Shown piece by piece: positions 21,952 through 62,766 of a stretch of DNA of 64,000 bases. Origin of the DNA: Candidatus Dojkabacteria bacterium (GTDB lineage Bacteria > Patescibacteriota > Dojkabacteria > GCA-002793355); contig CP129477.1 in the NCBI GenBank assembly GCA_030583825.1, forward strand, positions 10,259 through 74,258. The letters run 5' to 3'. How positions within the stretch are numbered: position 1 is the stretch's first letter; every line of letters begins with the position of its first letter. The position numbers were made by a program, and so were the translations under genes. The notes beneath the pieces are model-generated. The model did not search any database. It was not told where the DNA came from and was given only the letters and a program-made list of their open reading frames with translations.

Positions 21952-22686
21952 ATGAGCAAACTAAAAGGCATTTCAAATATTACTCACCCTATCATTCAAA
22001 CAATGCTGCCGTTGCAGCTAAAACAGCATGATATTCATTTAGGATTTCATTCGTACATACAAGAAATTACCGCAGATGAAACAGACTTTCTTCTTATTGA
22101 TGGCGAACGATTACTTACAGCATCTACAGAAACATCCGCAATAAAATTGCTTATTGAAGAGAAGAAACCCGTGTATGCACTCATAATGCGCAAAGACTAC
22201 AAAACCAAATTAAAACTATTAAATGAAAAATGCTGTGATTGTTTTGAATTCCCTATTGTGTCAGATGTCATTGCTAAGACTCTTCGAAACCAACTATTAC
22301 TCTACTCTCAGCAAAAAGTAAGCTCAGGGTATCTTTCAGAGCCGGAAACGCTGTACCACGTTCATGGAGAACAGGGATTACGCAAATTTAATATAGAATT
22401 TCTTCCGGCACAAAAGAAGCGATGGTTTCTTCGTTACAAAGATCAGGCACACCATGTATCCGTATATGAAAAACGAATTATTAGCTATATGCTTGATAGC
22501 AACAAAGTTGCCTCAAAACGTGAACTGGCATTCATTGCGTGGAATACATTTGACGTTCGGGATAATACTATTGTTGCAGCAGTCATGAAAATTCGAATGC
22601 TATTTCATAGACTAAAAATTCCAATAGCGATTAAAAATCTTTATGGTTATGGGTATTCTATGCAGCCGACCGAGCCTTCGGAGTGA
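21952..22686 (+). CDS. Atypical OmpR/PhoB-type winged-helix transcriptional regulator with a degenerate receiver-like N-terminus.
   Basis: C-terminal RIISYMLDSNKVASKRELAFIAWN...DNTIVAAVMKIRMLFHRL...YGYGYSM matches the trans_reg_C pattern (LTxxE..L..vW......vdvhi.rLRkKl..i.tvrGvGY). The N-terminus is receiver-like without a clear phospho-Asp. Confidence 0.5.
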   Translation: MSKLKGISNITHPIIQTMLPLQLKQHDIHLGFHSYIQEITADETDFLLIDGERLLTASTETSAIKLLIEEKKPVYALIMRKDYKTKLKLLNEKCCDCFEFPIVSDVIAKTLRNQLLLYSQQKVSSGYLSEPETLYHVHGEQGLRKFNIEFLPAQKKRWFLRYKDQAHHVSVYEKRIISYMLDSNKVASKRELAFIAWNTFDVRDNTIVAAVMKIRMLFHRLKIPIAIKNLYGYGYSMQPTEPSE

Positions 22687-24268
22687 CCATATGCTCTTTT
22701 TTCATTTTACCCATCATCATTTCAAGCTGAGCTTGAATATATGGCAAAAAATTAAAAGTAAGCATAGTAATTGTCAACAGAATTTGCTCAAAGAAGTGCC
22801 AGAGGAAAAAGAAGAAACCTTTTTCTTTTGGAGGAGATCCATACAGTTCTTCAAGGATAAAGCGTGATGGGAATAAACCAACAAGTGAAAAAGTGAGAAG
22901 ATAACTGATTACTCGCGGCAAAACGTGCGCAATGCCGAGAAGTCCAAAATCTCGATTCATTAACGCAATTAATGGAATACCGAAGGTTAGCAAAAAGGCA
23001 ATTGTTACCCAAATATTATAAACCTGGAAAAGATTCATAATACTGCCTAATCTTTCAAGTGGAGGTATTCGATTGTTGCGCAATAATCCCTGCAAGGTCA
23101 TAGGAAAGACAATAACTCCCCATCCCCAACGGTGAAGCTGTTTATATTGAGCAACATGAGTTTTTACTAAATCACCGGCATGAACAGCATCCATATATGT
23201 TGGAACATAAAATTCTTCTCCACGGAAACGCCCATCTAAGTGTAAGTAAGCATTCCAATAAAACGACGTGTCATCAACACCGATTCGAGGATCCCAGTAG
23301 TCAATGCGGTCAAGAAGGTGGAGGTTAAAACTATAGCAGGAGAAGCTTTGCTTTGTATTTTTAGCTGTGATCCATTCAGACATTGTTGCAAGCGTAATTG
23401 AGCTTGAAATAACACGCATCAAAACAGGAACGCTCCAATAGTTATTCGAATACAACATTATTGCAGGAGAAAAGAAGCAGTGGTATCTATCTTGAGTTGC
23501 AAGATATTTAAATGTTAATGCTGACAAAAACTTAGGATGTACTTTTAGGTCTGAATCATACTTTGTAACGAGAAAGTTTTCAATTTCATATCCTTCCTTA
23601 GAGATTTCAGAAACAAAAGCACGTGCGGCAAAACGTAGGTTTGCTCCGGCAATTCCTTTAACTTCACCAGGAATATCTTTAGGGTGAATATAATATCGAA
23701 GAGACTTAAAAGACTTTCCAAATTCTGCCTGTAATTTCTTTGCATTTTCTTCGGCTTCCGGGCCACCACTTTCTTCTACAGCAAGAACTACAAATACTTT
23801 ATTTTTGTTATCGTATTCTGAGTCTGCAAGCGCTTTCACCGTTGCTGACAATGTTTCATAGTCTTCCTTGTAAAAAGGAATCATCACAACGTGAAAAAAG
23901 TCTTTATATGATTTTGGAAGATAGTCAGATGCGAGATCTTGCTCAAATGAAAGCTTTTCTATTTTATCGTTCCAATCGGTCGCAAGCGTTTTTTGCATGC
24001 GGGAAAATGCGATAAAATTGCCAACACTCGACATAACACTTTTAAAAACCCAAAAAACGGCAAGAAATGTGATGTAATACAATACTAATTGAGGAAATCC
24101 AAACAAAGACGCCCAAATAGGAGATGAAAGCAAGAATATTGTAATGACCCCAGGAACAATGCTTAACACTTTAAAGCTCCAAGAATTCAGGTCGTATACC
24201 TTTTTATATATATTTTCCGACATACCGCATGTAATTATACCTTGATTGACAAAAACTCTCAAATACAT
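22658..24268 (-). CDS. Family-2 glycosyltransferase, processive type (cellulose/chitin-synthase-like), membrane-integral.
   Basis: 536 aa with N- and C-terminal TM helices, DSD (DxD), and QLHRWGWG (the Q(Q/R)xRW motif). Confidence 0.6.
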   Translation of the reverse strand: MYLRVFVNQGIITCGMSENIYKKVYDLNSWSFKVLSIVPGVITIFLLSSPIWASLFGFPQLVLYYITFLAVFWVFKSVMSSVGNFIAFSRMQKTLATDWNDKIEKLSFEQDLASDYLPKSYKDFFHVVMIPFYKEDYETLSATVKALADSEYDNKNKVFVVLAVEESGGPEAEENAKKLQAEFGKSFKSLRYYIHPKDIPGEVKGIAGANLRFAARAFVSEISKEGYEIENFLVTKYDSDLKVHPKFLSALTFKYLATQDRYHCFFSPAIMLYSNNYWSVPVLMRVISSSITLATMSEWITAKNTKQSFSCYSFNLHLLDRIDYWDPRIGVDDTSFYWNAYLHLDGRFRGEEFYVPTYMDAVHAGDLVKTHVAQYKQLHRWGWGVIVFPMTLQGLLRNNRIPPLERLGSIMNLFQVYNIWVTIAFLLTFGIPLIALMNRDFGLLGIAHVLPRVISYLLTFSLVGLFPSRFILEELYGSPPKEKGFFFFLWHFFEQILLTITMLTFNFLPYIQAQLEMMMGKMKKEHMVTPKARSAA

Positions 24269-24318
24269 TAGATTTCCTTAAGGAAACCTACTTTAATTAT
24301 AAACAGCTGCCCGCTTTC

Positions 24319-26529
24319 ATGGAGAGTATTATTTTTTACCAAGATATTGGTGAAAATTCAGTGTCTTTTAGAGAGGAACATCTCGGTCGAAAAGGATTAA
24401 GTCTTGCATTGCTTACGAAGTTCAAATTACCCGTTCCTCCGTTTTTCATTATACCCACCGGGGTATTCAAAGACTACATTTCCCGTATATCAAAGAATGT
24501 AAATATTGGAACAATTGAAGAATTACGCAAAGAAGTTGTTTCTACCCCATTGCCACCAGAATATCACGATAGTATCGCAGATTCTTATCGCAAACTTTCA
24601 GGTTTTGGCAAAGCTTGGGTTGCTGTGCGTGGCTCAATTAGTGCTCCAAAGCATCCCAATATTTCTTTTTCAGGACAATTAGATACTTTTTTGAATATTC
24701 GTGACGTTAATGAAATTGAGCTTGCAATCAAAGAGATTTACGCATCGCTTTTTAATGAAAGTGTCTACGAATACTTGAGAAAGAATAATGTTCCTTATAG
24801 CGATGTTTCCGTCAGTATCATTGTGCAAAAAATGATTCAATCTGAAGTATCAGGAATCATGTATACATTTGATCCAATCACAATGAACCGAAATAATGTT
24901 TCGATTGAAGCAGTTTTCGGACTTGGAGACGTATTGAATGACGGAACAATTAATCCTGACATTTATGTTGTTTCAAAGAATTCATACGAAGTTGTTGAAA
25001 AGAAAATTGTGCCACAAGAATGGATGAAAGTTCGCCGTATTGGTGACATCTCTTCGCTAGAACATGTACAAAAAATTAAAATTTCGAAAGTTTGGCAATA
25101 TTCACAAAAACTTGATGAAAACCTTATTAAGGATCTTGCGAATGTTGGAAGCCGCGTAGAATCTATTATTGATCCTTTCCAAATTGTCGAATGGACAATG
25201 GAAGGTGGAAATATTTGGATATTACAAATTAAAGCAGTTTCTACGAAACTGCTTTCCGAAGACAAACTTCCGACTCAGGATCAGCGAATTTCTACAATGG
25301 AAGTTGAGCAAAAAAGTGCAAGAATTGACGAGTCATTACAAGAACCTGTACCGGAAATAAAAAAGAGGAAGAAGAGTGCCGAAATTCAGGAGACATTGCT
25401 CTTCCTTGGAAATGCAGCAAGTCCCGGAACCGCATATGGACGTGCACTTGTTCTTTCAGCAGAAGTATTAAAGCAGGATATGCTTTTAGAAGAATTACTC
25501 GCAGAAGCGACCAAGGAAACAATTCTTGTTACAGAAGAGTTTTCAAGCAAACTAGAGCCATTTTTCTACAAAATAGGTGGTGTTATCACAAACTACGGCG
25601 GAATCAATAGTGATGCTGCAATTACATCCCGCGAGCTGAATCTTCCGGCAATTGTAGGAACACGTATTGCAACTGTCTTTATTCAGAATGGCACATTATT
25701 AAAGATTGATGGAGCGTCCGGCACTGTATATAGAATTGACGCGCTTCCTGAAATTGAAGGAGACGGATCACATACAAAAAAGGCTCCTTCTTTATCAAAA
25801 GCATCACGAGAAGCGAGTCAGGTAACAACAAATGAATACTCGCTACCGACGAAAAGTAGGTTGAGTGATGCACCAGAAAATGACGTCTTTAAGCTTTTTG
25901 TACCAAACTATTTGGGTAACTCACACTACCTTCTCGTAGATGACCAGTCAAAGGCTGATCCGGATCTTGATTACTCTGGAGTTTTGGTAAACGTTAAAGA
26001 AATCACAGCAGCAAGTTCCAAGAAATTTAAAAAGTTAAAGCATAATATCTCCGGTGCACTATATCTTGTCTTAGAAGATAATGCATCAGTTGATTCAGTT
26101 ATGGAGAAAAAGAGAAAACTTTCTGCATATAACCTGCGACGCTCAAGAAAAATTAGAATCATTCTCGAAGTCGGTTCTTTCTTTACTCTTTTAAATCTTG
26201 AACGATTTATCGGCTTAAATATTGATGGATTTGTCTTTAATCTCGAAAAACTGAGTGCAACGTACGGTAATGGAGCAACAACAATTGATGACAATTTGCT
26301 GCTCTTGCTTCAATCAAATATTCAAAAAGTAAAGCAGCAACAACTTCACATTCTTGCTTGCGCAATTCCGTCCGAGTTTATTACAACACCATTATCAAAA
26401 GAGATTATCTCCATCGCCAAATCAGGATGTAATTCGATTATCGTCAATAGCGGCAAGAAATCCGTCTCCAACGATACAATAGTCGAATTCTCAAGCGCAT
26501 ACCAATCTGCAATTCTCACAAAAGAATAA
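24319..26529 (+). CDS. PEP synthase / pyruvate phosphate dikinase-like three-domain protein. The phospho-carrier His is replaced by Asp.
   Basis: A PPDK_N ATP-grasp domain (VAVRGSISAPKHPNISFSGQLDTFLNIRD...SEVSGIMYTFDP). A PEP-utilisers swivel domain GNAASPGTAYGRALV...TNYGGINSDAAITSRELNLPAIVGT (canonical GGRTSHAAIIARELGIPAVVG). A divergent C-terminal region of about 270 aa. Confidence 0.6.
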   Translation: MESIIFYQDIGENSVSFREEHLGRKGLSLALLTKFKLPVPPFFIIPTGVFKDYISRISKNVNIGTIEELRKEVVSTPLPPEYHDSIADSYRKLSGFGKAWVAVRGSISAPKHPNISFSGQLDTFLNIRDVNEIELAIKEIYASLFNESVYEYLRKNNVPYSDVSVSIIVQKMIQSEVSGIMYTFDPITMNRNNVSIEAVFGLGDVLNDGTINPDIYVVSKNSYEVVEKKIVPQEWMKVRRIGDISSLEHVQKIKISKVWQYSQKLDENLIKDLANVGSRVESIIDPFQIVEWTMEGGNIWILQIKAVSTKLLSEDKLPTQDQRISTMEVEQKSARIDESLQEPVPEIKKRKKSAEIQETLLFLGNAASPGTAYGRALVLSAEVLKQDMLLEELLAEATKETILVTEEFSSKLEPFFYKIGGVITNYGGINSDAAITSRELNLPAIVGTRIATVFIQNGTLLKIDGASGTVYRIDALPEIEGDGSHTKKAPSLSKASREASQVTTNEYSLPTKSRLSDAPENDVFKLFVPNYLGNSHYLLVDDQSKADPDLDYSGVLVNVKEITAASSKKFKKLKHNISGALYLVLEDNASVDSVMEKKRKLSAYNLRRSRKIRIILEVGSFFTLLNLERFIGLNIDGFVFNLEKLSATYGNGATTIDDNLLLLLQSNIQKVKQQQLHILACAIPSEFITTPLSKEIISIAKSGCNSIIVNSGKKSVSNDTIVEFSSAYQSAILTKE

Positions 26530-26605
26530 GGCTTTCGGACACTTGTAGTAGGCTCAAAATTTTGTACCTTGTTGTGTATGCATTCTTTGCGTAGTAAAAT
26601 CAGTC

Positions 26606-29215
26606 ATGCAGTCCACTACGCCATTAATGCAACAATATCAGGAAATTAAGAGTGCGTATTCAGACGCAATTCTTCTCTTCCAAATGGGTGACTTTTTCGA
26701 ATGTTTTGGTGAAGATGCTGTGACAATTTCTCAAGTACTTGGCATTGTCCTTACAAAAAGAGAGAAAAAAGCAGATGCTCCACAAATGGCAGGATTTCCG
26801 CAAAAAGCACTCGACGAGTATCTTCCAAAGCTTGTTCATGCTGGTTACAAAGTTGCAGTTGCAAGGCAAATGGAACCCCCGACCGGTGGTAAAGGCATTG
26901 TAAAACGCGCAGTAACAGAAGTAATTACTCAGGGAACAATTACACAGCAGGAATCTCTGTTATCACAAGATAAAAACTACCTTGCAGCAATTGTGGTAAA
27001 TAAAAATCTTTTTGGACTTGCAATTGTTGATGTTACAACAGGAGAGCTTAAAGTGTATGAAGATAGATACGCTCCAGATAAAACGGCTGCACTTATAGAT
27101 AAAATTGCTCCGAGAGAAATTCTGCACCAACACTCGTTTAATTTGCAGCTTTCGCCTCTTTCCACAACAGTAAAACAACCTCTTTCAGATGTTTTCTTTG
27201 ATGTAAAGAAGTCTATAGAAACTGTTACATCTCATTTTAATGTCCCCAACCTTGACCCTCTTGGATTGCACGATAAGATGCTTGCAGCAATAGCAACCGG
27301 AGTTCTAATCGCGTATGTCAGCGATACTAAAAAAGTTACCCCAAAGCATATTCAAAAGATTGAACTATGGAATCCCTATAATTACCTCCTTGTTGATTCT
27401 ATTACCCAAAAGAACTTAGATATCTTTTCTAACCAAAGAACACATTCACTCAGTGGATCTCTCTTCGGAGTTATTGACAAAACAATAACCCCAATGGGAC
27501 ATAGAAAGCTATTTGAGTGGATTTCATTTCCTTTAACTGAGCAGGAAGAGATTACAAAACGTTTTGATGTTGTTTCATTTTTTATTGAAAATCAGGAGCA
27601 GATTAACACTGCAATTAGCGAACTTGAGGAAATTCACGATATTGAGCGATACGCCGGATTACTCGGCCTTGGACGAATTCATCATAGACAGCTATCAGCT
27701 CTCGCGTATAGTATTTCCCATGTTTTGACATTAAAATCTCTTCTCTCTTCCGCACAAAACGATACGCTTATTCCCCTTTTACACAGTGCTCTTGAAACGA
27801 TCGAGGACTCACCACTTAAAGAGCTGCAGTCTAAAATTTCGACAGCTCTTCCCGGGCTGGATGAAACATCCTCAACACTGTTTAAGAAAGGATTTAATGC
27901 GGAGCTTGATGAGCTTATCACACTTTCTACAGATGGCAACAAGCTTATTAAAGATATTTTCACAAGAGAAAAAGAGCAATCAGGCATTACCAACTTAAAA
28001 CTTGGATTTAATAAAGTATTCGGCTACTATTTTGAGACTTCAAGAGCTAATGAAAAGCTTATTCCATCACACTTCATAAAGAAACAAACACTTGTAAATA
28101 CTGATCGTTTTATAACGCAGGAAGTAAAGGATCTGGAAGAAAAAGTACTCCACGCGCAGGATCGCCTTGCTACAAAAGAACAAGAAGTATATGCGGCATT
28201 GGTTGCAGAACTGCAAGGATTTATTGGAAACATTCAATCTACCGCGGCGGCTGTTTCTGCAATAGATGTGTTACTTAACTTTGCTCGTGTTGCGATCACC
28301 AAAGGATATGCCCGACCTTCCTTTGTAAAAGAAGGTGAATCAATCGTCTTTACTGACGCACGCCATCCAGTAGTTAATGAGTTTGTTCCCGACTTTGTTC
28401 CAAATAGTTTGACTATCAATAAAGATAAAAACTTTATTATTCTTACAGGCCCGAACATGGGAGGTAAATCTACGTTTGTTAGACAGATTGCACTGATTCA
28501 TATTTTGGCGCAAGCAGGATCTTTTGTTCCTGCACAAGCATGTAATATTTCGATTATTGATAAGCTCTTTGCACGAATTGGCGCATCTGATGATATTGCA
28601 TCGGGGCGAAGCACATTTATGGTTGAGTTAAGCGAAGTCGCAAATATCATTCGCCATGCAACTGAAAAAAGCTTCGTTATTCTCGACGAAGTTGGCAGAG
28701 GCACCAGCACTTACGAAGGAATTGCCCTTGCTTGGGGAATTTCAGAGTATATTGCAAAGCACATAAAATGTACCACAATATTTACAACACATTTCCGCGA
28801 AATCACATTGCTTGAAAAAGAAGATACTCCGTATATCAACTTTAAGGTAAATATTAAAGAAGAAAATAATGATGTTTACTTCTTACACACCATTTCTCCT
28901 GGAGTTAGTGACAAGAGTTACGGTATTCATGTTGCAAAGTTAGTTGACCTGCCGGGGGAGATTATTAAAACAGCGCAAAAAATGCTCGATCGTTTTGAGC
29001 ATGAAAGGCCTGTTCAGCAAAAGAATCAGCCACCGGCAGATCAATTGGGAATGTTTTCACTACAAGCTCCTGTAGAGCCGCAGGAAGTCATTCCTGACAA
29101 TGTTAAGGCCTTTATGAGCGAGGTGGCTTCTCTTCAGCTTGAGACAATGACTCCTCTTGAGGCGATAAGCGTTTTGGCGTCTCTCCAGCAAAAGTTGCCT
29201 GATGTGTCCGAGTAA
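26606..29215 (+). CDS. mutS: DNA mismatch repair protein MutS.
   Basis: 869 aa. N-terminal TPLMQQYQEIK...FQMGDFFE, Walker A GPNMGGKST, and DEVGRGTSTYEG. Confidence 0.9.
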   Translation: MQSTTPLMQQYQEIKSAYSDAILLFQMGDFFECFGEDAVTISQVLGIVLTKREKKADAPQMAGFPQKALDEYLPKLVHAGYKVAVARQMEPPTGGKGIVKRAVTEVITQGTITQQESLLSQDKNYLAAIVVNKNLFGLAIVDVTTGELKVYEDRYAPDKTAALIDKIAPREILHQHSFNLQLSPLSTTVKQPLSDVFFDVKKSIETVTSHFNVPNLDPLGLHDKMLAAIATGVLIAYVSDTKKVTPKHIQKIELWNPYNYLLVDSITQKNLDIFSNQRTHSLSGSLFGVIDKTITPMGHRKLFEWISFPLTEQEEITKRFDVVSFFIENQEQINTAISELEEIHDIERYAGLLGLGRIHHRQLSALAYSISHVLTLKSLLSSAQNDTLIPLLHSALETIEDSPLKELQSKISTALPGLDETSSTLFKKGFNAELDELITLSTDGNKLIKDIFTREKEQSGITNLKLGFNKVFGYYFETSRANEKLIPSHFIKKQTLVNTDRFITQEVKDLEEKVLHAQDRLATKEQEVYAALVAELQGFIGNIQSTAAAVSAIDVLLNFARVAITKGYARPSFVKEGESIVFTDARHPVVNEFVPDFVPNSLTINKDKNFIILTGPNMGGKSTFVRQIALIHILAQAGSFVPAQACNISIIDKLFARIGASDDIASGRSTFMVELSEVANIIRHATEKSFVILDEVGRGTSTYEGIALAWGISEYIAKHIKCTTIFTTHFREITLLEKEDTPYINFKVNIKEENNDVYFLHTISPGVSDKSYGIHVAKLVDLPGEIIKTAQKMLDRFEHERPVQQKNQPPADQLGMFSLQAPVEPQEVIPDNVKAFMSEVASLQLETMTPLEAISVLASLQQKLPDVSE

Positions 29216-29873
29216 GCATATATCCTCTGCCATAAGATGAACGGATCACAACAGAGGAGCATAATTGCTTAATCAGTTGGTTCAGCCGATATACGATAAC
29301 TGCCAATGCATTTGTATTAGAAATATCTGCTTTGAGCATTAAAGCATCCGATGGCAAAAGTCTATTTGACATGAGTTGCGACATTACAGCTTCCTGCTGC
29401 TTTGTTAGCATTAACCGAAAATGAGGTCGTGATTTTTCGTAGAGTTGGCTATTTGCTAAGCACAACATATTCTGCCAACACAGTATTTCCGACGCGACTT
29501 CCTTTAAAGAAAAGAATAACTCAGCATGGCGCGTAACCCTTACAAGTAATTCATAGTATGAAAAGGGTTTTACTAAAATATCATCCACCCCCATTTGAAA
29601 AAGACCAATTCGTTTTGATAACTTTCCAGAATCAACGATAACAATTATTTTCATATTGGGAACATGACGGCGACACTGAGACACAATCTCTATGCCGGAA
29701 GACTTTAGCAGCTCGCATTCTATAAGCATCGCTGCCGGACGATGTTTCTCAACATTGCTAAGAATGCTGTGTTTGCTATGAGCAAACGTACAATACAGCC
29801 CGCTGCTTTCGAAAAAGAGCGAACAGTTGTTTTGGATTATCTTGTCCCCCACCGCAACAAGAACACTGTTCAT
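29112..29873 (-). CDS. Atypical OmpR-family response-regulator-like protein. It has a pseudo-receiver (Glu at the phospho-site region) plus a C-terminal wHTH.
   Basis: The receiver-like part has AMLIECELL (in place of DLvLLDl) and MGVDDILVKPFSYYELLVRV (aGaDDYLtKPF..eEL.aRv). The C-terminus FRLMLTKQQEAVMSQLM...NALAVIVYRLNQLI...SYGRGYML is trans_reg_C-like. It overlaps the mutS 3' end by 104 nt (convergent). Confidence 0.5.
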   Translation of the reverse strand: MNSVLVAVGDKIIQNNCSLFFESSGLYCTFAHSKHSILSNVEKHRPAAMLIECELLKSSGIEIVSQCRRHVPNMKIIVIVDSGKLSKRIGLFQMGVDDILVKPFSYYELLVRVTRHAELFFSLKEVASEILCWQNMLCLANSQLYEKSRPHFRLMLTKQQEAVMSQLMSNRLLPSDALMLKADISNTNALAVIVYRLNQLIKQLCSSVVIRSSYGRGYMLTRTHQATFAGETPKRLSPQEESLSQAEEKPPRS

Positions 29874-44415: not shown

Positions 44416-45159
44416 TCAATCAAGCGATAAAGCACCTTTTTCTCGAAAGCTATAGTAGCCCGCATTCGCAATAATTATATGATCAAGTAAAGGAATACCA
44501 AGCAAATTGCTAATTTCAAAAAGCTTTTGTGTTTCTTTCATATCCTGCGGACTTGGGTCACTGTTTCCAGATGGATGGTTATGTGCAATAACAATATTTG
44601 ATGTTTTGTATCGCAATGCTTCAATAAATAGTTCCCGCGGAGAAAATAATACACTCCTAGAAGTTCCGAGAAATGTTGTTTTCTTCGCTATCATTCGCAA
44701 AGAGGCGTCAAGAAAAAAGCACACTATTCTTTCCTGCTTAGAAGAAAGCATGTCCTGACATTGCGCAATAATCTTTTGAGGCGAGTTTAAGGTCAATCGT
44801 TTTGTTGAAACGTACCGGGAAAGCAACATAACAACCGCAAGTATTGCTTTGATTTTTACGTCTCCCATTCCCTTTATATGAGACAACTCTCTTTCGAATT
44901 CAGCGAAAGAGAGTTGCCCTTCAATGTGAGCAGTAATTTTTTTGTTGACCTTTCGAGCGACATCAAGCACATTTGCGCCTTTCACTCCATATCCTAAAAT
45001 CAATGCAACAAGCTCAGTCTGCGAAAGTGCGTCAAATCCAAAAGAATCACTTTTTTCTCGTACGAGTAGTGACCTTTTTAGTTTTGGCTCCTTTACGTAT
45101 TCTGCCATTATTTGCATTGGCGATATATTTACAATTAGGATATCCTGAGCATCCGACAA
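44416..45159 (-). CDS. radC: RadC-family JAB/MPN protein (UPF0758).
   Basis: HNHPSGNSDPSPQD (JAMM motif), with an N-terminal HhH (IKGMGDVKIKAIL). Confidence 0.8.
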   Translation of the reverse strand: MSDAQDILIVNISPMQIMAEYVKEPKLKRSLLVREKSDSFGFDALSQTELVALILGYGVKGANVLDVARKVNKKITAHIEGQLSFAEFERELSHIKGMGDVKIKAILAVVMLLSRYVSTKRLTLNSPQKIIAQCQDMLSSKQERIVCFFLDASLRMIAKKTTFLGTSRSVLFSPRELFIEALRYKTSNIVIAHNHPSGNSDPSPQDMKETQKLFEISNLLGIPLLDHIIIANAGYYSFREKGALSLD

Positions 45160-47215
45160 AATATCTACCAGTCTTTGCTCGTCTTTCTACTAAATGCTTT
45201 CCACATTCTGGACAAACATCTTTTAGTAACAATGGCAGAGTCTTTTTGATTTCCGGGTAACCCGGGTGTGCCCAAAATGATCCGAATCGGCTCTTTTTAA
45301 GAACATATCCTTCTTTGGTAACTTCCTCTGGAATGTGATACTTTTCTTCATCAATAAACGGCTCTGTGTGACCACAATCTGGAGTAAAACATGCGTAATA
45401 TTTGCCATACGGCCCAATTTTCATGTGAAGGAGTTTTTCACATTTTGGACAAGGCTTTTCTGTTTCTCCAAGATCTGTAAGCTTGTCTTTTGAAATTGTT
45501 TTCTCTTTCTGTGCAATATCTTTAATAAATGCCGGGTAAAAATCATCAAGCATCTTTTCCTTCTCAATCTTGTCGCTGACTATTTTATCAAGCTCATCTT
45601 CCATCTTTGCAGTAAAATCATAGTCAACAATTTGTGGGAAAAATTCTATTAAAAACTTTGCGACAAGCATTCCCGTATCTGTTGGCCATAGCGACTTTTC
45701 TTCTCGCTTTACGTACTCACGTGTAACCAACGTTGAAATAATAGATGCATATGTCGAAGGCCTTCCGATCCCTCTTTTTTCAAGTTCTTTTACCAAAGAA
45801 GCGTCATTATATCTACTCTTTGGCGTTGTCATTAATTCCTGAACTTTATATTCTTCAACAGTAAGCGAGTCACCCGATTTTAATTGTGGAATAACAAGTA
45901 CCGGTTTGTCACTTGAGTACTTTTCAACAAGGGAATATCCTTTAAAGATAATTTCTTCCGCGCTTACCTGGTATTGTATTTTTTCTTTGGAAAAGACTTC
46001 ATTTAACTTCTTATCTTGCGGAACTGTTATTAGTTTCTTCTCACGAATGACTGCAGGCTTCATTTGTGTTGCAACTGCTCTCTGCCAAATCATTGTGTAT
46101 AACTTTAACTGCTGTGGGGTAAGAAACTTTGCAATCTTTTCAGGAGCATATTCTATGTGAGTCGGTCGAATAGCCTCATGCGCTTCCTGAGCGACTTTCG
46201 CTTTTGTTTTATATCGTCGAACGGTATCATTCAAATATTCTTTTCCGTATTCTTTAGTTACCCACTTTCTAATTTGCTCAATTGCAACTTCGCTAAAAGT
46301 TGTAGAATCTGTTCTCATATAGGTAATCAATCCCTGCATACCAGAATCGCCAATGTTGATTCCCTGGTACAGTTCTTGTGCGATAGACATTGTTTGTTTT
46401 GCTGTAAAACCAAATCTTCTGTTAGCATTCTGTTGTAACTTTGAAGTAGTAAAAGGAGCGGACGGAGTCGAAGATTTATCTTTTTCAAAGTAACCCACAA
46501 CTGTATGTTTATCCTGGCTCTGCAAGTGCTCGCCTACTTCTTTCTGGAATTCTGGCGTCATCTTATAAAGATCTCCCTTTTTCGTAGATAGCCTGAAAAT
46601 TAATTCCTCGCCTGTTTCAGTGTAGGTAACATCGTGAAGAAGATATGGTTGGGGAATAAATGCTTTTATTTCATCTTCTCGCTCTGCAATTAAACGTAAC
46701 GCAACAGACTGCACTCGTCCAGCAGATAATCCGTATTTAACTTTTTTCCAGAGTAACTGAGACAGTGGATATCCTACCAAGCGGTCAAGAATTCTTCGCC
46801 CCTGTTGTGCCTGAACTAAGTCTTCATCAATTTTTCTTGCATGATCAATAGCATCCTGGATTGCAGGCTTAGTTACTTCGTGAAAAACGACTCTTTCGTA
46901 ACTTTTAGGTTTCAAATCACATACTCTCACAACTTGCCATGCAATGGATTCTCCTTCACGGTCAGGGTCAGGAGAAAGATAAATCTTTCCTTCTGTCTTT
47001 TTAACTTCCTGTTTTAATTCTTTTATAACCTTATCCTTTCCTTTGATAACAGTATATTCAGGCTCATAGTTATTTTCGACATCCACACCCAATTTACTTG
47101 TTGGTAAATCAATAATGTGACCAACAGTTGCGATGACTTTATAGTCTTTGCCTAAATAAGACTGAATTGTTTTTGCCTTTGATGGTGACTCTACAATCAT
47201 TAAATGTTTTGCCAT
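45047..47215 (-). CDS. topA: DNA topoisomerase I.
   Basis: 722 aa. Toprim N-terminus LMIVESPSKAKTI, an active-site Tyr region, and C-terminal Zn-ribbons (CPKCEK..., CPECGK...). Confidence 0.9.
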   Translation of the reverse strand: MAKHLMIVESPSKAKTIQSYLGKDYKVIATVGHIIDLPTSKLGVDVENNYEPEYTVIKGKDKVIKELKQEVKKTEGKIYLSPDPDREGESIAWQVVRVCDLKPKSYERVVFHEVTKPAIQDAIDHARKIDEDLVQAQQGRRILDRLVGYPLSQLLWKKVKYGLSAGRVQSVALRLIAEREDEIKAFIPQPYLLHDVTYTETGEELIFRLSTKKGDLYKMTPEFQKEVGEHLQSQDKHTVVGYFEKDKSSTPSAPFTTSKLQQNANRRFGFTAKQTMSIAQELYQGINIGDSGMQGLITYMRTDSTTFSEVAIEQIRKWVTKEYGKEYLNDTVRRYKTKAKVAQEAHEAIRPTHIEYAPEKIAKFLTPQQLKLYTMIWQRAVATQMKPAVIREKKLITVPQDKKLNEVFSKEKIQYQVSAEEIIFKGYSLVEKYSSDKPVLVIPQLKSGDSLTVEEYKVQELMTTPKSRYNDASLVKELEKRGIGRPSTYASIISTLVTREYVKREEKSLWPTDTGMLVAKFLIEFFPQIVDYDFTAKMEDELDKIVSDKIEKEKMLDDFYPAFIKDIAQKEKTISKDKLTDLGETEKPCPKCEKLLHMKIGPYGKYYACFTPDCGHTEPFIDEEKYHIPEEVTKEGYVLKKSRFGSFWAHPGYPEIKKTLPLLLKDVCPECGKHLVERRAKTGRYFVGCSGYPNCKYIANANNGRIRKGAKTKKVTTRTRKK

Positions 47216-48393
47216 GAGTCGGGAACATATAATAAGTTAGGTAATAATACACTTCGCCATTCTTGAATGACATTAAGACGTTTTAATTCTATCACACACG
47301 AAGAGAACTCTTTCACATCTTTGTTACAAGCATGCCATAGAAACTCCGAAAAGTCTGTAAAGAACAGTTTATACAATCCTGGCAATTTTAATCCTTTTCC
47401 TGACATTGTTCGTCCCAATAACGAGCCTATATGCTTTAAGTAACTCTTTATGATAGTTATTGCAATACGTTCTTTATGCCTTAATATCGCGTCGGTAAGT
47501 GTGGTGATATACGGATTGTACGGTATATCTGGAGGATGCAGTACATTACCGCGAGCTCTTCGGTTCGCTAGGTTATGAACAAGATAGTAGACTTCCCTAT
47601 TGTAGCTTTCTGCAAATGCAGCCGTTATTAATGCACCACTTTTTACAGGCGCTTCAGCAACGATACAAAACTCTGATAATCCGGCAATTATTCTATTCCG
47701 CGCGACATAACACCATTTTACATTTCCACTTATTGGCTTAGAAGGATATTCTGAAATAATTAATTGATTTTCTGCTCGCTTTGAAAACACTGTCTGCTTC
47801 CAAAAGGGAACTACTGCAATCGTATTTACATTATGTTTTGCGGCACTTTTCCAAACCTCTTCATCTATACCACTGGCTAAGCCACTGACACAAGTAATTG
47901 TTTTTGATAAAGATGCCTCCCACACCATACGCTTAGTCATTGCCTGGGCATAGTAGGATGAGTGGCGCGTACCGACAATACCAATAGTCATGTCAGTTGA
48001 AGATAATAAATTAATATTTCCGCTGTAAAATAAGATAAAAGGAGGATCATTGATAACTTGCAACGCTTTAGGGTATTTTTCATCCGTTATATGAATATAC
48101 CCAACCTGCTTTTTAATAAAGTAATCGTAAATTGCATCTGCTTTGTGCTTCCATATGCTGGCCGAGTGCAAAAGTACTATTACAGAGTCCGGTAAATCGT
48201 GAATTCTTACTTTTTCTCTGAATATCGTCCGACTTTCTAATGAGTAAGGATCCCGAAGTAATACTTCCTGCTCTCTTTGAGAAAGCGATTTCCACCATTT
48301 GGTGATAGAAGAGGATTTTACGTCACCATACATCAGAATGTATGTGAAAAAAGAAAAAAATTGTTTGTTCATTGCTCCTAGTATACGGGACAT
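47200..48393 (-). CDS. dprA: DNA processing protein DprA/Smf.
   Basis: Rossmann-like core IGIVGTRHSSYYAQ...SGLASGIDEE. This is the conserved dprA-topA pair, overlapping by 16 nt. Confidence 0.8.
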   Translation of the reverse strand: MSRILGAMNKQFFSFFTYILMYGDVKSSSITKWWKSLSQREQEVLLRDPYSLESRTIFREKVRIHDLPDSVIVLLHSASIWKHKADAIYDYFIKKQVGYIHITDEKYPKALQVINDPPFILFYSGNINLLSSTDMTIGIVGTRHSSYYAQAMTKRMVWEASLSKTITCVSGLASGIDEEVWKSAAKHNVNTIAVVPFWKQTVFSKRAENQLIISEYPSKPISGNVKWCYVARNRIIAGLSEFCIVAEAPVKSGALITAAFAESYNREVYYLVHNLANRRARGNVLHPPDIPYNPYITTLTDAILRHKERIAITIIKSYLKHIGSLLGRTMSGKGLKLPGLYKLFFTDFSEFLWHACNKDVKEFSSCVIELKRLNVIQEWRSVLLPNLLYVPDSWQNI

Positions 48394-52247: not shown

Positions 52248-53954
52248 CTAGAATCCGTCTTTTTCAGAAGGAGAATAATCAATAACGTCGTCAATATAAA
52301 ACTGTATTTCTGTATTGCCTCTAAATGTATTTCGTTTTACTTTACCTACAAATGTTACTGTATCTCCTTGTAAAAATTTCCCAACCACTGATTTTGCATT
52401 AAAGAATACACAGGTAACAACGGCATCTCCACTTGAAAGATGGATGCGTGCATGTTCTCCCATTGCTCCCATCATATTAATTTGATGAATTTGCCCCTTA
52501 ATTGCAACCAATGGAGCAAAATTTCCTTGACCATATGGTTCAAGCAATTCAATTCCTTTCATAAGATCTTCTGATACATCCCTTGGAGCTATCGAAATAT
52601 CTATTGTTCGAGTGTTTTCAGGAACGTAGTTTGTATATTGCTCTGCTAAGTGCTTTTCTAATGCAGCAATGAAGTTTTCAAAAGATTCATCTTTTACAGT
52701 AAATCCCGCAGCGGCATGATGTCCGCCATATTTCGCAAGATTTTCTTTAATACCTTCCAATACTTCTGTAATATTAAGATTTGTAATACTTCTTGCTGAG
52801 CCTTTCAGTAGACCGGAATTCTTCTCTTTTGTCATAACAATTGCTGGCATATCGTAACGTTGTAATAGCCTCCCTGCAACAAGACCAATCACGCCATCTT
52901 CCCACCCTTCGCCATAGGCAACAATAAGGCTTTCCCGCACAAGCGTTTTTGCCTGATCCGCCTCTTCAAATACGCGCTTCATAATTGACTGTCGCTGTAT
53001 ATTCGTCGTCTCAATCTCTCGTAGTAGCGATAATGCAAACTCCTCCTTATCCGTAGCCAAAAGCCTTACTGTCTGATACGCATTTCCCACCCTTCCAGTC
53101 GAATTCAATCTTGGCCCGATGATAAAGCCAAAATGATAAATATCACATTGCTCAGGCTGAATTTGCTGCGAGAGTAATATCAATTTTATCGGTAATGAGG
53201 GATCAGTACGTGCCTTTTCAAGCGCTTTTATAATAATTGCCCTATTTTCTTCAAGTAACGGCATAATATCTGTGACAAGAGAGAGTCCGACAAGATCAAC
53301 AACTGAATCAGAGAATGTATGTTCTGTTTTTCTCAACTCTTCAATAGTGCGAATAAGTTTCCATGCAACAACTGTTCCCGACGTATATTTATTTGCAGCT
53401 TCTTTGTCTGGATATAACGGATGTACAATTGGGCACTCAGGAATTTTCTCACCAGGTTGGTGATGATCAGTGACAATTATTTCAAGCTTCTTACTTTGCC
53501 ACTGCGCAATAAGGTCTGCATCTCTGACACCACAGTCAACAGTAATAACAACATCGTACCCTTGGGATGCAATATCTTCGAGAGCCTCATTATTCAGCCC
53601 ATACCCTTCTTCTTGTCTGTTAGGAATATATATTGTTGACTTCGCACCAAGTTCTTTCGAAAGATACCTCCACAAAATACTGGCAGCAACCATTCCATCG
53701 ACATCGTAATCTCCATATACACAGATTTTTTTGCCTTCAGAAACATATTTTAAAATAAGTTCGCCAACTTTTTCTATTTCCCAGATATCTTTATGATTAA
53801 TTGATTCAGCTCCTTTTTGAAACCGTTGCAGCTCTTCAACAGAAGTAATACCTCTGCGAACAAGAAACTGAACAATTGCGGCTGATTGTGTAAACTCAAG
53901 AAGATCTGGAAAAGAATCCGCACTAATATGTTCAGGTAAAACGTATTTTCTCAT
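52248..53954 (-). CDS. recJ: Single-stranded-DNA-specific exonuclease RecJ.
   Basis: DHH motifs (VYGDYDVDG, ITVDCG, VTDHHQPG), a DHHA1 domain GGHHAAAGF, and a C-terminal OB fold. Confidence 0.85.
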   Translation of the reverse strand: MRKYVLPEHISADSFPDLLEFTQSAAIVQFLVRRGITSVEELQRFQKGAESINHKDIWEIEKVGELILKYVSEGKKICVYGDYDVDGMVAASILWRYLSKELGAKSTIYIPNRQEEGYGLNNEALEDIASQGYDVVITVDCGVRDADLIAQWQSKKLEIIVTDHHQPGEKIPECPIVHPLYPDKEAANKYTSGTVVAWKLIRTIEELRKTEHTFSDSVVDLVGLSLVTDIMPLLEENRAIIIKALEKARTDPSLPIKLILLSQQIQPEQCDIYHFGFIIGPRLNSTGRVGNAYQTVRLLATDKEEFALSLLREIETTNIQRQSIMKRVFEEADQAKTLVRESLIVAYGEGWEDGVIGLVAGRLLQRYDMPAIVMTKEKNSGLLKGSARSITNLNITEVLEGIKENLAKYGGHHAAAGFTVKDESFENFIAALEKHLAEQYTNYVPENTRTIDISIAPRDVSEDLMKGIELLEPYGQGNFAPLVAIKGQIHQINMMGAMGEHARIHLSSGDAVVTCVFFNAKSVVGKFLQGDTVTFVGKVKRNTFRGNTEIQFYIDDVIDYSPSEKDGF

Positions 53955-56298: not shown

Positions 56299-57765
56299 TT
56301 ATACACCCTCGTGTCCCTTGATTCTGTGTGCCTGGGTTCCATGCGCATTATAGAAATCAACGGCAACTTTCAGTTCTTCGTGGTCTTTTGCATATTCTTC
56401 GAGAGAAACTCCCTGTTTCCATGCTTCATATGACTGAACAACCGCAGTTGTACCCGATTGTGTTCCCATTGGATGAGAATGAACTCCACCACCCATTGTC
56501 ACAATGAAATCAATTGTTCCCATTACTTCAATAAATTCCGGAAGCAAGACTGGATTAAGTCCGCCAGAAATAATTGGTGCCATTTTTCGGACAACTCTCC
56601 AATCATGTTCCATGGTGTCAAGGTGGGTAACATCAGCTTGAGATTTTACAAATGATCGTAGATTCATTGCAGCCTTTGTTTCTTCATCTTTGATCATCTT
56701 CTGTAGATCACTGTCAGCATGAGGAATTTTGCTCCAAATCTGCGTAAAGAACTGGCCTTCCGCCCGAACATTTAATGCCTGCTTTGCGGCCATCATGTCA
56801 ATATCTGGTGTTCCTGCCATTTTCCCAACACCCGCAGTACCTGTGTGCATTCCTGAAGCACCTGCAAGACGTCCAAACATTGTAAGAACAGGAACTGTCA
56901 TTCCAAATGGATTTTCTTCGCGGGTAATTGCTCCGTGACCTGCGCGGTGGAAATGTAAGAATACATCTGGATATCGTCGGCGAATTGTTTGAATAGCTGT
57001 CCATCCGGCTGTAATACCATCAACAAGGAAAGCATAGCTACCTGGCTTCATTTTGCTGACAACATACTCTGCTCGACGAATCATTGTGTCGAAGTCAACA
57101 GCAGAAATATTAAATGAGTGAACTTTTGTTCTTCCAGTTTTATCTTCTGCACGATCCATTGCCATTCTTACGGCATCTACCATATGTGTAAACGGTGAAA
57201 AATGCTGGTTCGCCTGCGGTTCATCATTTTTAACGAACATTCCACCACCAACCCAGAAGTCATAACAAAGTTCTGCATATTCATTTGGTGTTAAACCAAT
57301 CTTTGGCTTAATAATTGTTCCAAGAATTGGGCTATCAAAAACTTCGAGATAGTTTCGCATATCGTCGATCGTTGTTCTTGGACCATCGTAATGTACAAGC
57401 ATTGATGGTGGGAAATATACGTCTAACAGTCGGCATCCTTTTGATTCGCCGACACCCATAATGTTTCCTACAATAAATGTGAGGATATTTTGAACATTTC
57501 CATCACTATCGAAGATTTCCCATGGAAATGCTATCCAAATCAGGTGATTCTTTTCGTCCACTTTGTAAACGCGAGCATTGAGCTCAAGTGAATAATTAGT
57601 TGCAGATCCAACTTTCAGGTTTGAGCCTGTTGAAGCCTCTGCCGCGATTTCTGTTGCAAGATCGTCTAACGCAATTCCATCCTGTGGGATAGCACGATAG
57701 ACAGCTAACAGATATCGGTCGTTGTGTACGGATTCGTCTCCGAGAAAAAGGTACTCTTTTTGCAT
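56299..57765 (-). CDS. rbcL: Ribulose-1,5-bisphosphate carboxylase large subunit, form II/III (archaeal/CPR type).
   Basis: TIIKPKIGL (KPKxG), GGGMFVKNDE (carbamyl-Lys with D/E metal ligands), HFHRAGHG, GMHTGTAGVGKMAG, SGGLNP and GGGVHSHPMG. There is no small-subunit gene. Confidence 0.8.
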   Translation of the reverse strand: MQKEYLFLGDESVHNDRYLLAVYRAIPQDGIALDDLATEIAAEASTGSNLKVGSATNYSLELNARVYKVDEKNHLIWIAFPWEIFDSDGNVQNILTFIVGNIMGVGESKGCRLLDVYFPPSMLVHYDGPRTTIDDMRNYLEVFDSPILGTIIKPKIGLTPNEYAELCYDFWVGGGMFVKNDEPQANQHFSPFTHMVDAVRMAMDRAEDKTGRTKVHSFNISAVDFDTMIRRAEYVVSKMKPGSYAFLVDGITAGWTAIQTIRRRYPDVFLHFHRAGHGAITREENPFGMTVPVLTMFGRLAGASGMHTGTAGVGKMAGTPDIDMMAAKQALNVRAEGQFFTQIWSKIPHADSDLQKMIKDEETKAAMNLRSFVKSQADVTHLDTMEHDWRVVRKMAPIISGGLNPVLLPEFIEVMGTIDFIVTMGGGVHSHPMGTQSGTTAVVQSYEAWKQGVSLEEYAKDHEELKVAVDFYNAHGTQAHRIKGHEGV

Positions 57766-60750: not shown

Positions 60751-62766
60751 TTACTTATCTGCTAAAAACCTATCAATCTGGACAGGAACAACAAATGGAT
60801 TAGTATATGTTTTTACTCTTACAAAGCCCTTATCACTATCTGAACTAAATCTTACAAGAGAATCAGCAAAATCCGAGAAATCATAATATTTTCTCAACTC
60901 CCTTATTTCTTCCTCATTGTTAAGATGTGCGATAAACCAATTTTGAGTATTTTTCAAAATATTTGCACTAATAGAGCTGACCTCTTGGGTAGCATATATT
61001 AAACCTAAGTTAAGTTTTGCACCTTCTTTAGCAATTCTATTGTAGATTTGGCTAAGATCTTTCTCGTCTTTTTTAGGGAATAGATTATGTGCTTCTTCAA
61101 AATAGAACTGGATAAAATTCGTTAGTTTGCTTTCAATGAATTTATTCATTGAATCCTCAAAGATCTTCCTACATATTCTTTCTGAATAAAGATTTTGTAT
61201 TTCTGGATCTCCCTGCGACAGATCAACAATGACGATCTCACCCTTTCGCAGGCTTTCTATTACTTTATCCTCGAAAGGTTTATCTGCAACACTCGTATGT
61301 AATTTAATTAGTGGTTTTAGTTTATGATATCCACTTACAAAACTGGATGAGCCAGCCTGTTTTTTACGTGTGAGAAATATGATTATCGACTTCAATTCTT
61401 CATCTGCCCATTCTTTCCCTTTTTCAGTCTTATATTTTTTTAGGTAATCAATCTCGTCATATTTATCCCAAAGTTGACTAAACCAAATAACTGCATCATC
61501 AAGTGAGATTCCTTTTGATGGATCAATAGGACTAGATTCCCTAACAGCTTTATTTATATCCGCTTGTCCACTAAAGGAGACTTTGAAATTAGATGGTAAA
61601 GAAAATCCCGCTTGAAACAAGCAACATTGATATGCAGCAACTTTTCTATCATACCTTACCTTCACGCTCATATCTTGATCATAATCCTCTGGCTTTTCCA
61701 AGTTAATAGATAGAAAACCGTTAAGATAATCCGAACTTTCACCAATTTCTTTGAAATGCCTTTGAATTAAAGAAAATCCTGATAAAACTTCTGTATAAAA
61801 ATTGACTTTCATTACATTAAAGCCTTCTTTCTCTAATACGCTGTACCTAGTTACTTGTTCCTTATAAAGTTCATAAATGGCAGTACCTTCATCCTGTTGA
61901 TTAGCATTTGCATACTCCCCATTAATGTCAAAAATAATCTGCCCGACTTTTTGTCGTGGAGCTGACCCCTCAAAATTATCTGTACCAGAATCACTATCAT
62001 CTTGAGTATTTTTAGCTTTTGATGATATTTCCTGTGTTGCTTCAATTATCTTCTTAAGGGTATTAGATTTTCCTGTTCTAGTCATACCGAATAATGCAGT
62101 TCTCTTGCCTAAGAAGTCCTTTGGGTTAATATAGACTTCAACATCTTCTTGATCATATTGAAATCTTCTACTAGAACTATATCTTACCTTTCCAATTGGA
62201 AAGTCATATTGACTTCCGACAATATCATCCTTGCTTCTTAGGTTGACGATATATCGAAGCACGTCACCACTTGCCTTATAAACAACATAGTTGTTCGCTG
62301 AATAGAAGTTCTCAACATCTGCACCAAACTCTATTCGTTCTTTACCCTCTTCACCAATTTTATAAAATGTACCTAAAATCCTACACTCAAGACCTGAAAA
62401 ACTAAATTCATATCGTGTAAAAGTATCTAATTTGCTCTGTTGTCCATTCGTAATATCAACGTTATCTTTGTAATACTCAATCATTGAACTAACGACATCA
62501 TTATCTGTTGGTAGCTTAGATGGAGCTATTGCTCTTAAAAGTAAAGCTTCTTTCCTGTCAGGATCAGAATCACCTGTATAAAAAGCTAATAAAAAAGAAC
62601 CATGAGGAATACCACCTGCTCTATGCTTCCAAGCATCTGAGATTAATATTTGAGCCTTTGAATAATCTAAATAATATGGTTTCCCAACTAAAAAATTCTC
62701 GTTTATTCCTTTCTTTAGAATATCTATTGATAATATTTGATCAATTTTGTCTTCGATTAATGCCAT
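60751..62766 (-). CDS. HerA/FtsK-superfamily ATPase (HerA-like helicase or translocase).
   Basis: 671 aa. N-terminal barrel region, Walker A ALFGMTRTGKSNTL, IIFDINGEY (HerA vLifDpHGEY), Walker B FYFEEAHNLFP (DEAH-like), and LGLIYATQEVSSI. Confidence 0.65.
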   Translation of the reverse strand: MALIEDKIDQILSIDILKKGINENFLVGKPYYLDYSKAQILISDAWKHRAGGIPHGSFLLAFYTGDSDPDRKEALLLRAIAPSKLPTDNDVVSSMIEYYKDNVDITNGQQSKLDTFTRYEFSFSGLECRILGTFYKIGEEGKERIEFGADVENFYSANNYVVYKASGDVLRYIVNLRSKDDIVGSQYDFPIGKVRYSSSRRFQYDQEDVEVYINPKDFLGKRTALFGMTRTGKSNTLKKIIEATQEISSKAKNTQDDSDSGTDNFEGSAPRQKVGQIIFDINGEYANANQQDEGTAIYELYKEQVTRYSVLEKEGFNVMKVNFYTEVLSGFSLIQRHFKEIGESSDYLNGFLSINLEKPEDYDQDMSVKVRYDRKVAAYQCCLFQAGFSLPSNFKVSFSGQADINKAVRESSPIDPSKGISLDDAVIWFSQLWDKYDEIDYLKKYKTEKGKEWADEELKSIIIFLTRKKQAGSSSFVSGYHKLKPLIKLHTSVADKPFEDKVIESLRKGEIVIVDLSQGDPEIQNLYSERICRKIFEDSMNKFIESKLTNFIQFYFEEAHNLFPKKDEKDLSQIYNRIAKEGAKLNLGLIYATQEVSSISANILKNTQNWFIAHLNNEEEIRELRKYYDFSDFADSLVRFSSDSDKGFVRVKTYTNPFVVPVQIDRFLADK

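Follow-up and report, generated by a model that had tools for sequence, protein, structure and literature searches.

Phosphoenolpyruvate (PEP) synthase, PpsA, consists of an ATP-grasp domain, a mobile (swivel) domain and a barrel that binds PEP and pyruvate, in this order, and in the canonical reaction the beta-phosphate is transferred through a pyrophosphoryl-His. Rifampin phosphotransferase (RPH; 5fbs/5hv1) shows how the ATP-grasp and swivel domains can be put to use on a substrate other than PEP, with the order ATP-grasp domain, substrate domain and C-terminal swivel domain; its residues K22, R117, T136 and E297 serve ATP binding, as found by mutagenesis (PMC4844700). In Enzyme I, which has a homologous swivel domain, mutants of the catalytic His tune the docking of that domain, the closed (barrel-docked) state amounting to ~0% in H189E and ~76% in H189A (PMC13598208). 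Here we describe a gene at positions 24319..26529 (+) of a 64,000-nucleotide stretch of contig CP129477.1 from a Candidatus Dojkabacteria bacterium; this whole stretch is called the window below. The 736-aa product is derived from PpsA and has Asp at the position of the phospho-carrier His. By the sequence evidence it is almost certainly a selected ATP-binding protein and not a PEP synthase, and the gene is best described as descending from an archaeal-type PEP synthase by neofunctionalisation, the interconversion of pyruvate and PEP having been lost.

The open reading frame (ORF) was present exactly as the initial annotation had given it, and its product is 100% identical to the NCBI protein WKZ30183.1, named 'PEP/pyruvate-binding domain-containing protein [Candidatus Dojkabacteria bacterium]'. 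Pfam places the PPDK_N ATP-grasp domain (PF01326) at aa 20-311 (24376..25251, +; E 1.5e-54) and the PEP-utilizers mobile domain (PF00391) at aa 399-468 (E 2.6e-16), while for the PEP-utilizers_C barrel (PF02896) no Pfam match was obtained in the protein. In an AlphaFold 2 model (mean predicted local distance difference test score, pLDDT, 81; predicted template modelling score, pTM, 0.47), the ATP-grasp domain is followed by a charged linker with predicted disorder (aa 312-353; 25252..25377, +; pLDDT <50), which leads to the swivel domain (aa 355-476; 25381..25746, +), and a second, low-confidence linker (aa 477-520; 25747..25878, +) separates the latter from a reduced C-terminal domain (aa 521-736; 25879..26526, +), which profile-profile and structure comparison indicate to be a remnant of the PEP/pyruvate TIM barrel. 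The three domains stand in the order seen in PpsA, and Foldseek with the model gave overall matches to PpsA and RPH. The best NCBIfam matches were the PEP synthase equivalogs NF005057 and TIGR01418, both below their cut-offs (244.3 bits vs 598 and 226.3 bits vs 739.75); the PPDK model TIGR01828 scored 60.5 bits against a cut-off of 843, and the RPH model NF041857 180.8 bits against 999.

The motif GGINSDAAITSRELNLPAIVGT spans aa 427-448 and belongs to a swivel loop conserved as GGxxSDxA[IL]xxRExxIPAxVGT. In HMMER comparisons with PDB sequences, GGINSDAAITSREL was aligned with GGRTSHAAIVSREL and GGMTSHAAIVSREL of the PEP synthases 8a8e and 9dae, and also with the His825 loop of RPH 5fbs. Because MAFFT and hidden Markov model (HMM) alignments agreed with this, Asp432 (codon GAT, 25612..25614, +) can be placed in the column of the catalytic phospho-His, thus confirming the replacement that had been read from the letters in the initial annotation. 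No other swivel-domain column with a conserved His was found across the proteins that share this residue (the Asp clade).

In a first homology search, the 43 closest clusters (P0001-P0043) and P0047 all had Asp in the His column, whereas His was present in every match whose PF02896 barrel could be recognised. Scanning of species-representative genomes identified 116 that encode a relative, and 80 loci were kept, almost all labelled Dojkabacteria; together with loci fetched by protein look-up, these yielded 85 distinct orthologues. Asp was found in 83 of them, Glu in one (L082, at aa ~463) and Ala in one (L083, at aa ~477), and both variants retain the ATP-site residues. Asp is encoded by GAT in 60 and by GAC in 10 of the orthologue loci, and the ORFs of the clade are intact throughout (685-950 aa); the closest locus with DNA is only 60% identical, a distance at which saturation of synonymous sites would be expected. 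An exhaustive profile search of 1.84 billion representatives agreed with this, the top ~40 having Asp, with one Asn and one Ala. Judged from these alignments, Asp has become fixed in the His column under selection and does not stem from an error.

The ATP-grasp motifs were described at the outset as well conserved, and comparison of the orthologues supports this: each of K25, R104, S106, T/S123, Q170, D214, E291 and Q303 is kept in 84-85 of the 85. Among them are the Lys of G-x-K-G (K25), the Arg of VRSS (R104), the Thr of DT-LN (T123), the Glu of xEW (E291) and the Gln of LQ-x-[RK] (Q303); K25, R104, T123 and E291 are the equivalents of the four RPH residues named above. K22, R92, D321, E323 and R337 are ATP-site residues of PPDK, with roles taken in part from the titles of PDB mutant entries. 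The surroundings of the site have changed in a clade-specific manner. The motif GRKG (aa 23-26; 24385..24396, +) is the counterpart of the canonical GGKG, with Arg24 in 83 of 84 Asp-clade members and Gly in the canonical enzymes; N28S, E110P and R305K are further substitutions, D111, R148 and R153 have been lost, and D289 is variable (listed as D289I), some members of the clade still keeping it. With the exception of N28S, these changes (G24R, E110P, D111, R148, R153, D289 and R305K) fall on residues that are 100% invariant in PpsA, and their net effect is that acidic groups are removed and one basic group is added.

Median identities over 73 genome pairs were 39.6% for the ATP-grasp domain, 37.9% for the swivel domain and 37.6% for MutS, which is encoded downstream (see below). 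Since the two domains are as conserved as MutS, the protein is, by this measure, under strong purifying selection. The barrel remnant evolves faster.

The C-terminal domain of the long-form orthologues (~845-950 aa) is clearly homologous to that of canonical PpsA (hhalign: 99.9% probability, E 7e-37, 291 columns). Profile-profile comparison aligned the short form found in the window to the second half of that barrel only (95.7% probability, E 9.5e-9, 157 columns); relative to the long forms, its first half is ~130 residues shorter. The C-terminal part of the AlphaFold 2 model was matched by Foldseek to PpsA C-terminal domains (8a8e_A, 9dae_A) and to HpaI/HpcH-type barrels. By these comparisons the domain is a decayed PEP/pyruvate barrel, homologous to that of PpsA and strongly divergent, as had been noticed originally. 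Eleven canonical ligand columns for PEP, pyruvate and Mg are 74-97% conserved in 76 His proteins and retained in 0 of 76 Asp proteins, and the canonical set (Arg, Arg, Glu, Asn-Asp, Arg, Cys) does not occur in the window protein. With all 11 columns lost, the Asp clade has, by this evidence, given up the PEP/pyruvate half-reaction. The conserved polar residues left in the remnant are only K598, R608 and D636-G637, and no new polar cluster was seen. Taken with the missing His, this describes a pseudoenzyme: key catalytic residues have been lost while purifying selection persists.

The protein therefore shares with archaeal-type PpsA (8a8e, 9dae, 2ols) its domain order, its best sequence and structure matches, its ATP-site residues and the swivel fold, and it is unlike PpsA in its Asp, in the lost ligands and barrel half, in scores far below the family cut-offs and in the position of its gene, fixed upstream of mutS. 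From PPDK it likewise differs in the absence of the catalytic His and of the barrel ligands and in its score. The initial annotation had regarded the protein as non-canonical, which the replaced His and the decayed barrel bear out, and had also pointed to a resemblance to antibiotic phosphotransferases built from the same domains, which did not hold. The ATP-grasp and swivel domains are indeed homologous to those of RPH, but RPH keeps His825, a C-terminal swivel domain and a dedicated rifampin-binding domain, whereas the window protein has none of these and ends in a degraded barrel without a new polar site. The domain order, the RPH score (180.8 vs 999) and the absence of an RPH-like substrate domain rule out an antibiotic kinase of this type. 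Lacking the catalytic His and the ligands of the barrel, and with scores under the equivalog cut-offs, the protein is without three defining features of PEP synthase and, by its sequence, does not belong under PpsA, PPDK or RPH. A component of anti-phage defence was also considered and ruled out, as PADLOC gave no match for the protein or for three neighbours.

In a rough neighbour-joining tree of the ATP-grasp domain the Asp clade was monophyletic. Its sister group consisted of His-less PpsA-like proteins labelled Dojkabacteria/Patescibacteria (among them P0260, P0274, P0148, P0150, P0156 and P0160), and the His-bearing P0147 and P0166 lay further out; the nearest canonical relatives are largely archaeal PpsA. 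Like the Asp clade, the sister family descends from archaeal-type PpsA, has lost the His and most of the barrel ligands and retains the ATP-site residues. It differs in that its swivel loop is degenerate, with S, Y, F, E, I, K, R and others in the His column, in that PF02896 is still detectable, and in its neighbourhood. The sister-family gene (for example in L169, 7001-9478, and L170, 7001-9469, the loci of P0260 and P0274) is always preceded by the genes for GluRS, for a large protein and for a Na+/H+ exchanger, and no mutS was found nearby. A metagenome scan aimed at the family gave two of its loci, both ending at contig edges, and otherwise 78 loci of canonical His-PpsA. It seems probable that the His was lost at the base of the wider group that spans both families, after which one lineage probably fixed Asp within an intact swivel loop and the other let the loop drift. 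As the sister family keeps its ATP site next to a degenerate loop, a covalent phospho-carrier would seem to be dispensable for the present role of the ATP-grasp domain.

We also noticed that the ATP-grasp profile is matched by many long proteins of 1000-2600 aa (P0157, 2648 aa; P0159, 2309 aa; P0164, P0167, P0170-P0177 and others). Their architecture is unusual in that they contain tandem arrays of 2-6 swivel domains, in all of which the His is intact.

The conserved genomic partner of the gene, which had gone unnoticed in the initial annotation, is mutS (26606..29215, +), encoding 869 aa with all five MutS domains. The two genes are separated by a spacer of 76 bp (26530..26605, +), in which a terminator scan revealed no convincing intrinsic terminator on the + strand. 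In 76 of 77 informative Asp-clade loci, the gene is followed by mutS on the same strand; 56 loci have a gap of <=150 bp, 12 have one of 151-1200 bp and 8 have one of >1200 bp. Where the two genes are not immediately adjacent, those between them are unrelated singletons. As a negative control, 78 metagenome loci of canonical His-PpsA were inspected, and mutS was present within ±5 kb in 0 of them. The pairing spans short forms, long forms and the most divergent member, P0047, and it persists across five different, unrelated upstream families in 78 loci; because both forms pair with mutS, short and long forms can be regarded as positional orthologues. The sole locus without a downstream mutS is that of the Ala variant L083 (none within 3.1 kb), and the largest gap, 5.3 kb, belongs to the Glu variant L082. 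The non-Asp variants thus coincide with the weakest linkage, which is suggestive, although there are two cases only.

Two observations were made around mutS itself. Convergent with it, at 29112-29873 (-), lies a gene for a 253-aa response-regulator receiver protein (PF00072, E 6.7e-13), the ORF as called overlapping the 3' end of mutS (29215) by ~100 bp, and a similar gene follows mutS on the opposite strand in L001, L005 and L086. No mutL was seen within the window.

Taking these results together, we favour a reading in which the protein may be an accessory factor or conformational switch that binds ATP, and possibly hydrolyses it, and not a phosphate shuttle. The ATP-grasp domain would bind Mg-ATP, and the swivel loop would still dock on the ATP-grasp site, the one conserved surface that remains for it because the barrel site is gone. 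Asp432 could then be a fixed, non-transferable stand-in for phospho-His, or a ligand of Mg or phosphate, that sets the position of the swivel domain; the barrel remnant may serve as a scaffold or dimerisation module. The output would act on a partner, for which MutS is the sole candidate offered by the genomic evidence. Global TM-scores of the AlphaFold 2 model were 0.40-0.41 with the PPDK entries 1dik/1kbl vs 0.25-0.28 with 2r82, 1vbg and 5jvl; 1dik and 1kbl have the swivel domain at the nucleotide domain, and at a pTM of 0.47 the likeness to them is weak evidence. The H189 mutants of Enzyme I offer a parallel, in that the residue at the catalytic His shifts docking of a homologous swivel domain and Glu behaves like the phospho-form. 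Those are, however, laboratory mutants with an intact PEP site, whereas the carboxylate in the Asp clade is natural and selected and the barrel site has been lost. The specific mechanism, a non-transferring Asp within a switch, is possible, and we put it forward tentatively.

Several points weigh against this proposal. ATP binding by the ATP-grasp domain is something that we infer from residue conservation alone. A carboxylate that is conserved almost absolutely looks more like a catalytic residue than like a mimic, and the changes G24R, E110P, D111, D289 and R305K could equally fit a retuning of the ATP site for acyl-phosphate chemistry. With regard to the partner, unrelated genes have been inserted between the pair in 20 loci, and the mutS pairing may partly be inherited synteny, as an AI-2E-type upstream neighbour is also conserved (61 of 78 loci).

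Two of these points, the conservation of the carboxylate and the changes at the ATP site, lend some weight to a true aspartyl-phosphate carrier, the most serious competitor of the switch proposed above. Here the ATP-grasp domain would phosphorylate Asp432, and the swivel domain would deliver the phosphate to an acceptor or cycle as an ATP-driven switch. ATP-grasp enzymes typically make acyl-phosphates from carboxylates, so that this would be the ancestral chemistry of the superfamily. The carboxylate is nearly invariant (Asp in 83 and Glu in 1 of 85) with both codons in use, conservation is strict in the swivel loop as well as in the ATP site, and the charge at the phosphate site has shifted from acidic towards basic (through the gain of G24R and the loss of E110, of D111 and, in many cases, of D289), which would suit an anionic nucleophile. 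However, no acceptor site is evident, the barrel having lost its ligands without acquiring a new polar cluster, evolving fastest and being half deleted in the short form; moreover, the sister family keeps the ATP site without a functional loop, and the rare Ala and Asn variants have intact ORFs. We know of no precedent for Asp in the role of the pyrophosphoryl-His. In the established phospho-Asp proteins (receiver domains, HAD proteins and P-type ATPases), a CheY-like or HAD fold surrounds the Asp with an acidic Mg pocket; Asp432 lies in the PEP-utilizers swivel fold instead, and any aspartyl-phosphate at this residue would be a new context for phospho-Asp. On balance we consider such a carrier unlikely. 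Its boldest version, in which Asp432 is a genuine phospho-acceptor, the ATP-grasp domain has reverted to ancestral carboxylate chemistry and the ATP-driven cycle is functionally coupled to MutS, for example so as to regulate or energise mismatch repair in the ultra-small Dojkabacteria, is unlikelier again; if true, the protein would be the first swivelling phospho-aspartate carrier.

The conserved ATP site could also belong to a direct kinase or ATPase, in which a substrate or water is phosphorylated directly at the ATP-grasp site and Asp432 acts as a general base or Mg ligand without a covalent intermediate. The canonical Mg-binding Asp, Asp289, varies in the clade, so another carboxylate could replace it, and in one lineage (L082) Glu stands in for Asp. 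Since D289 is also retained in some members, and since no substrate domain or pocket can be identified and nothing resembles the substrate domain of RPH, we regard this as improbable. An inert relic, i.e. a scaffold with no nucleotide-dependent role in which Asp is kept as the N-terminal residue of a helix, has even less in its favour. Dead homologues do typically show losses such as those of the His and of the full set of barrel ligands, and Asp is a good helix-capping residue; yet a mere scaffold would not preserve eight invariant ATP-site residues across lineages whose MutS proteins are ~37% identical, and in the sister family the loop has drifted whereas in the Asp clade it has not. There is accordingly little chance that the protein is inert.

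That Asp could take over from His in a still functional PEP synthase or PPDK is scarcely credible. The three-domain order and the best NCBIfam matches do point to PEP synthase, and the literature on the candidate phyla radiation (CPR) takes PEP synthase as a possible replacement for pyruvate kinase (PMC7304191). Nevertheless, the scores lie far under the equivalog cut-offs (244 vs 598 and 226 vs 740), PF02896 is not matched, none of the 11 ligand positions is retained and the barrel is without its first half, so that the sequence effectively refutes this alternative. Finally, a sequencing or assembly error or a recent pseudogene can be dismissed: His CAT and Asp GAT are indeed one base apart, but Asp recurs in 83 of 85 independent assemblies, with GAT and GAC both in use and ORFs of 685-950 aa intact.

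These findings bear on how such genes are read. Proteins of this kind carry the public labels 'PEP/pyruvate-binding', 'pyruvate,water dikinase' or 'phosphoenolpyruvate synthase', and metabolic reconstructions of CPR genomes invoke PEP synthase as a stand-in for a missing pyruvate kinase (PMC7304191). In Dojkabacteria such an inference would be wrong for the Asp-clade gene and for the His-less sister family, and a likely metabolic mis-annotation in CPR genomes would thereby be corrected. A clade-wide carboxylate beside an intact ATP-grasp site may be seen as a natural experiment, with either a swivel domain that carries an acyl-phosphate or a permanent phospho-mimic that turns a dikinase into a switch as its outcome. 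The pairing with mutS, maintained across lineages with ~37% identical MutS, points to an unrecognised accessory factor or a co-regulated function for mismatch repair in minimal genomes. No account of the Asp clade, its Asp or its mutS pairing was found in the searchable literature, the coverage of which is incomplete, so that this is not proof of absence.

On the other side of the gene there is, as first reported, a divergent neighbour (22658..24268, -), encoding a 536-aa membrane protein; its identity as a family 2 glycosyltransferase (GT2) is less secure, the Chitin_synth_2 match being sub-threshold (20.8 bits vs a cut-off of 27). A QxxRW-like motif, QYKQLHRWGWG, can be read from the sequence, and the orthologues in L001-L003 had no precomputed Pfam match. 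Of 78 loci, only 9 have the GT2-like gene upstream, all within the short-form sublineage, which together with the sub-threshold call rules out a functional link to it. A promoter-like TTGACA-17-TAGATT lies ~45 bp before the start codon (24246..24274, +), a consensus match only, and the regional count of such matches is not above that in shuffled sequence. Rfam detected only three tRNAs in the window, all away from the 24319-26529 region.

Elsewhere in the window, an orphan at 21952-22686 (+) had a weak Trans_reg_C match only, and the type I restriction-modification methylase gene hsdM is present at 1293-2864. Other genes of DNA metabolism are topA, dprA, recJ and one for a HerA/DUF87-like ATPase (45047-48393, 52248-53954 and 60751-62766, all on the - strand). 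In addition, a homologue of the RuBisCO large subunit is encoded at 56299-57765 (-), and in L004 and L088 there is likewise a RuBisCO gene in the vicinity of the Asp-clade gene. This fits the nucleoside-salvage RuBisCO that has been reported for Dojkabacteria/WS6 (PMC5113843).

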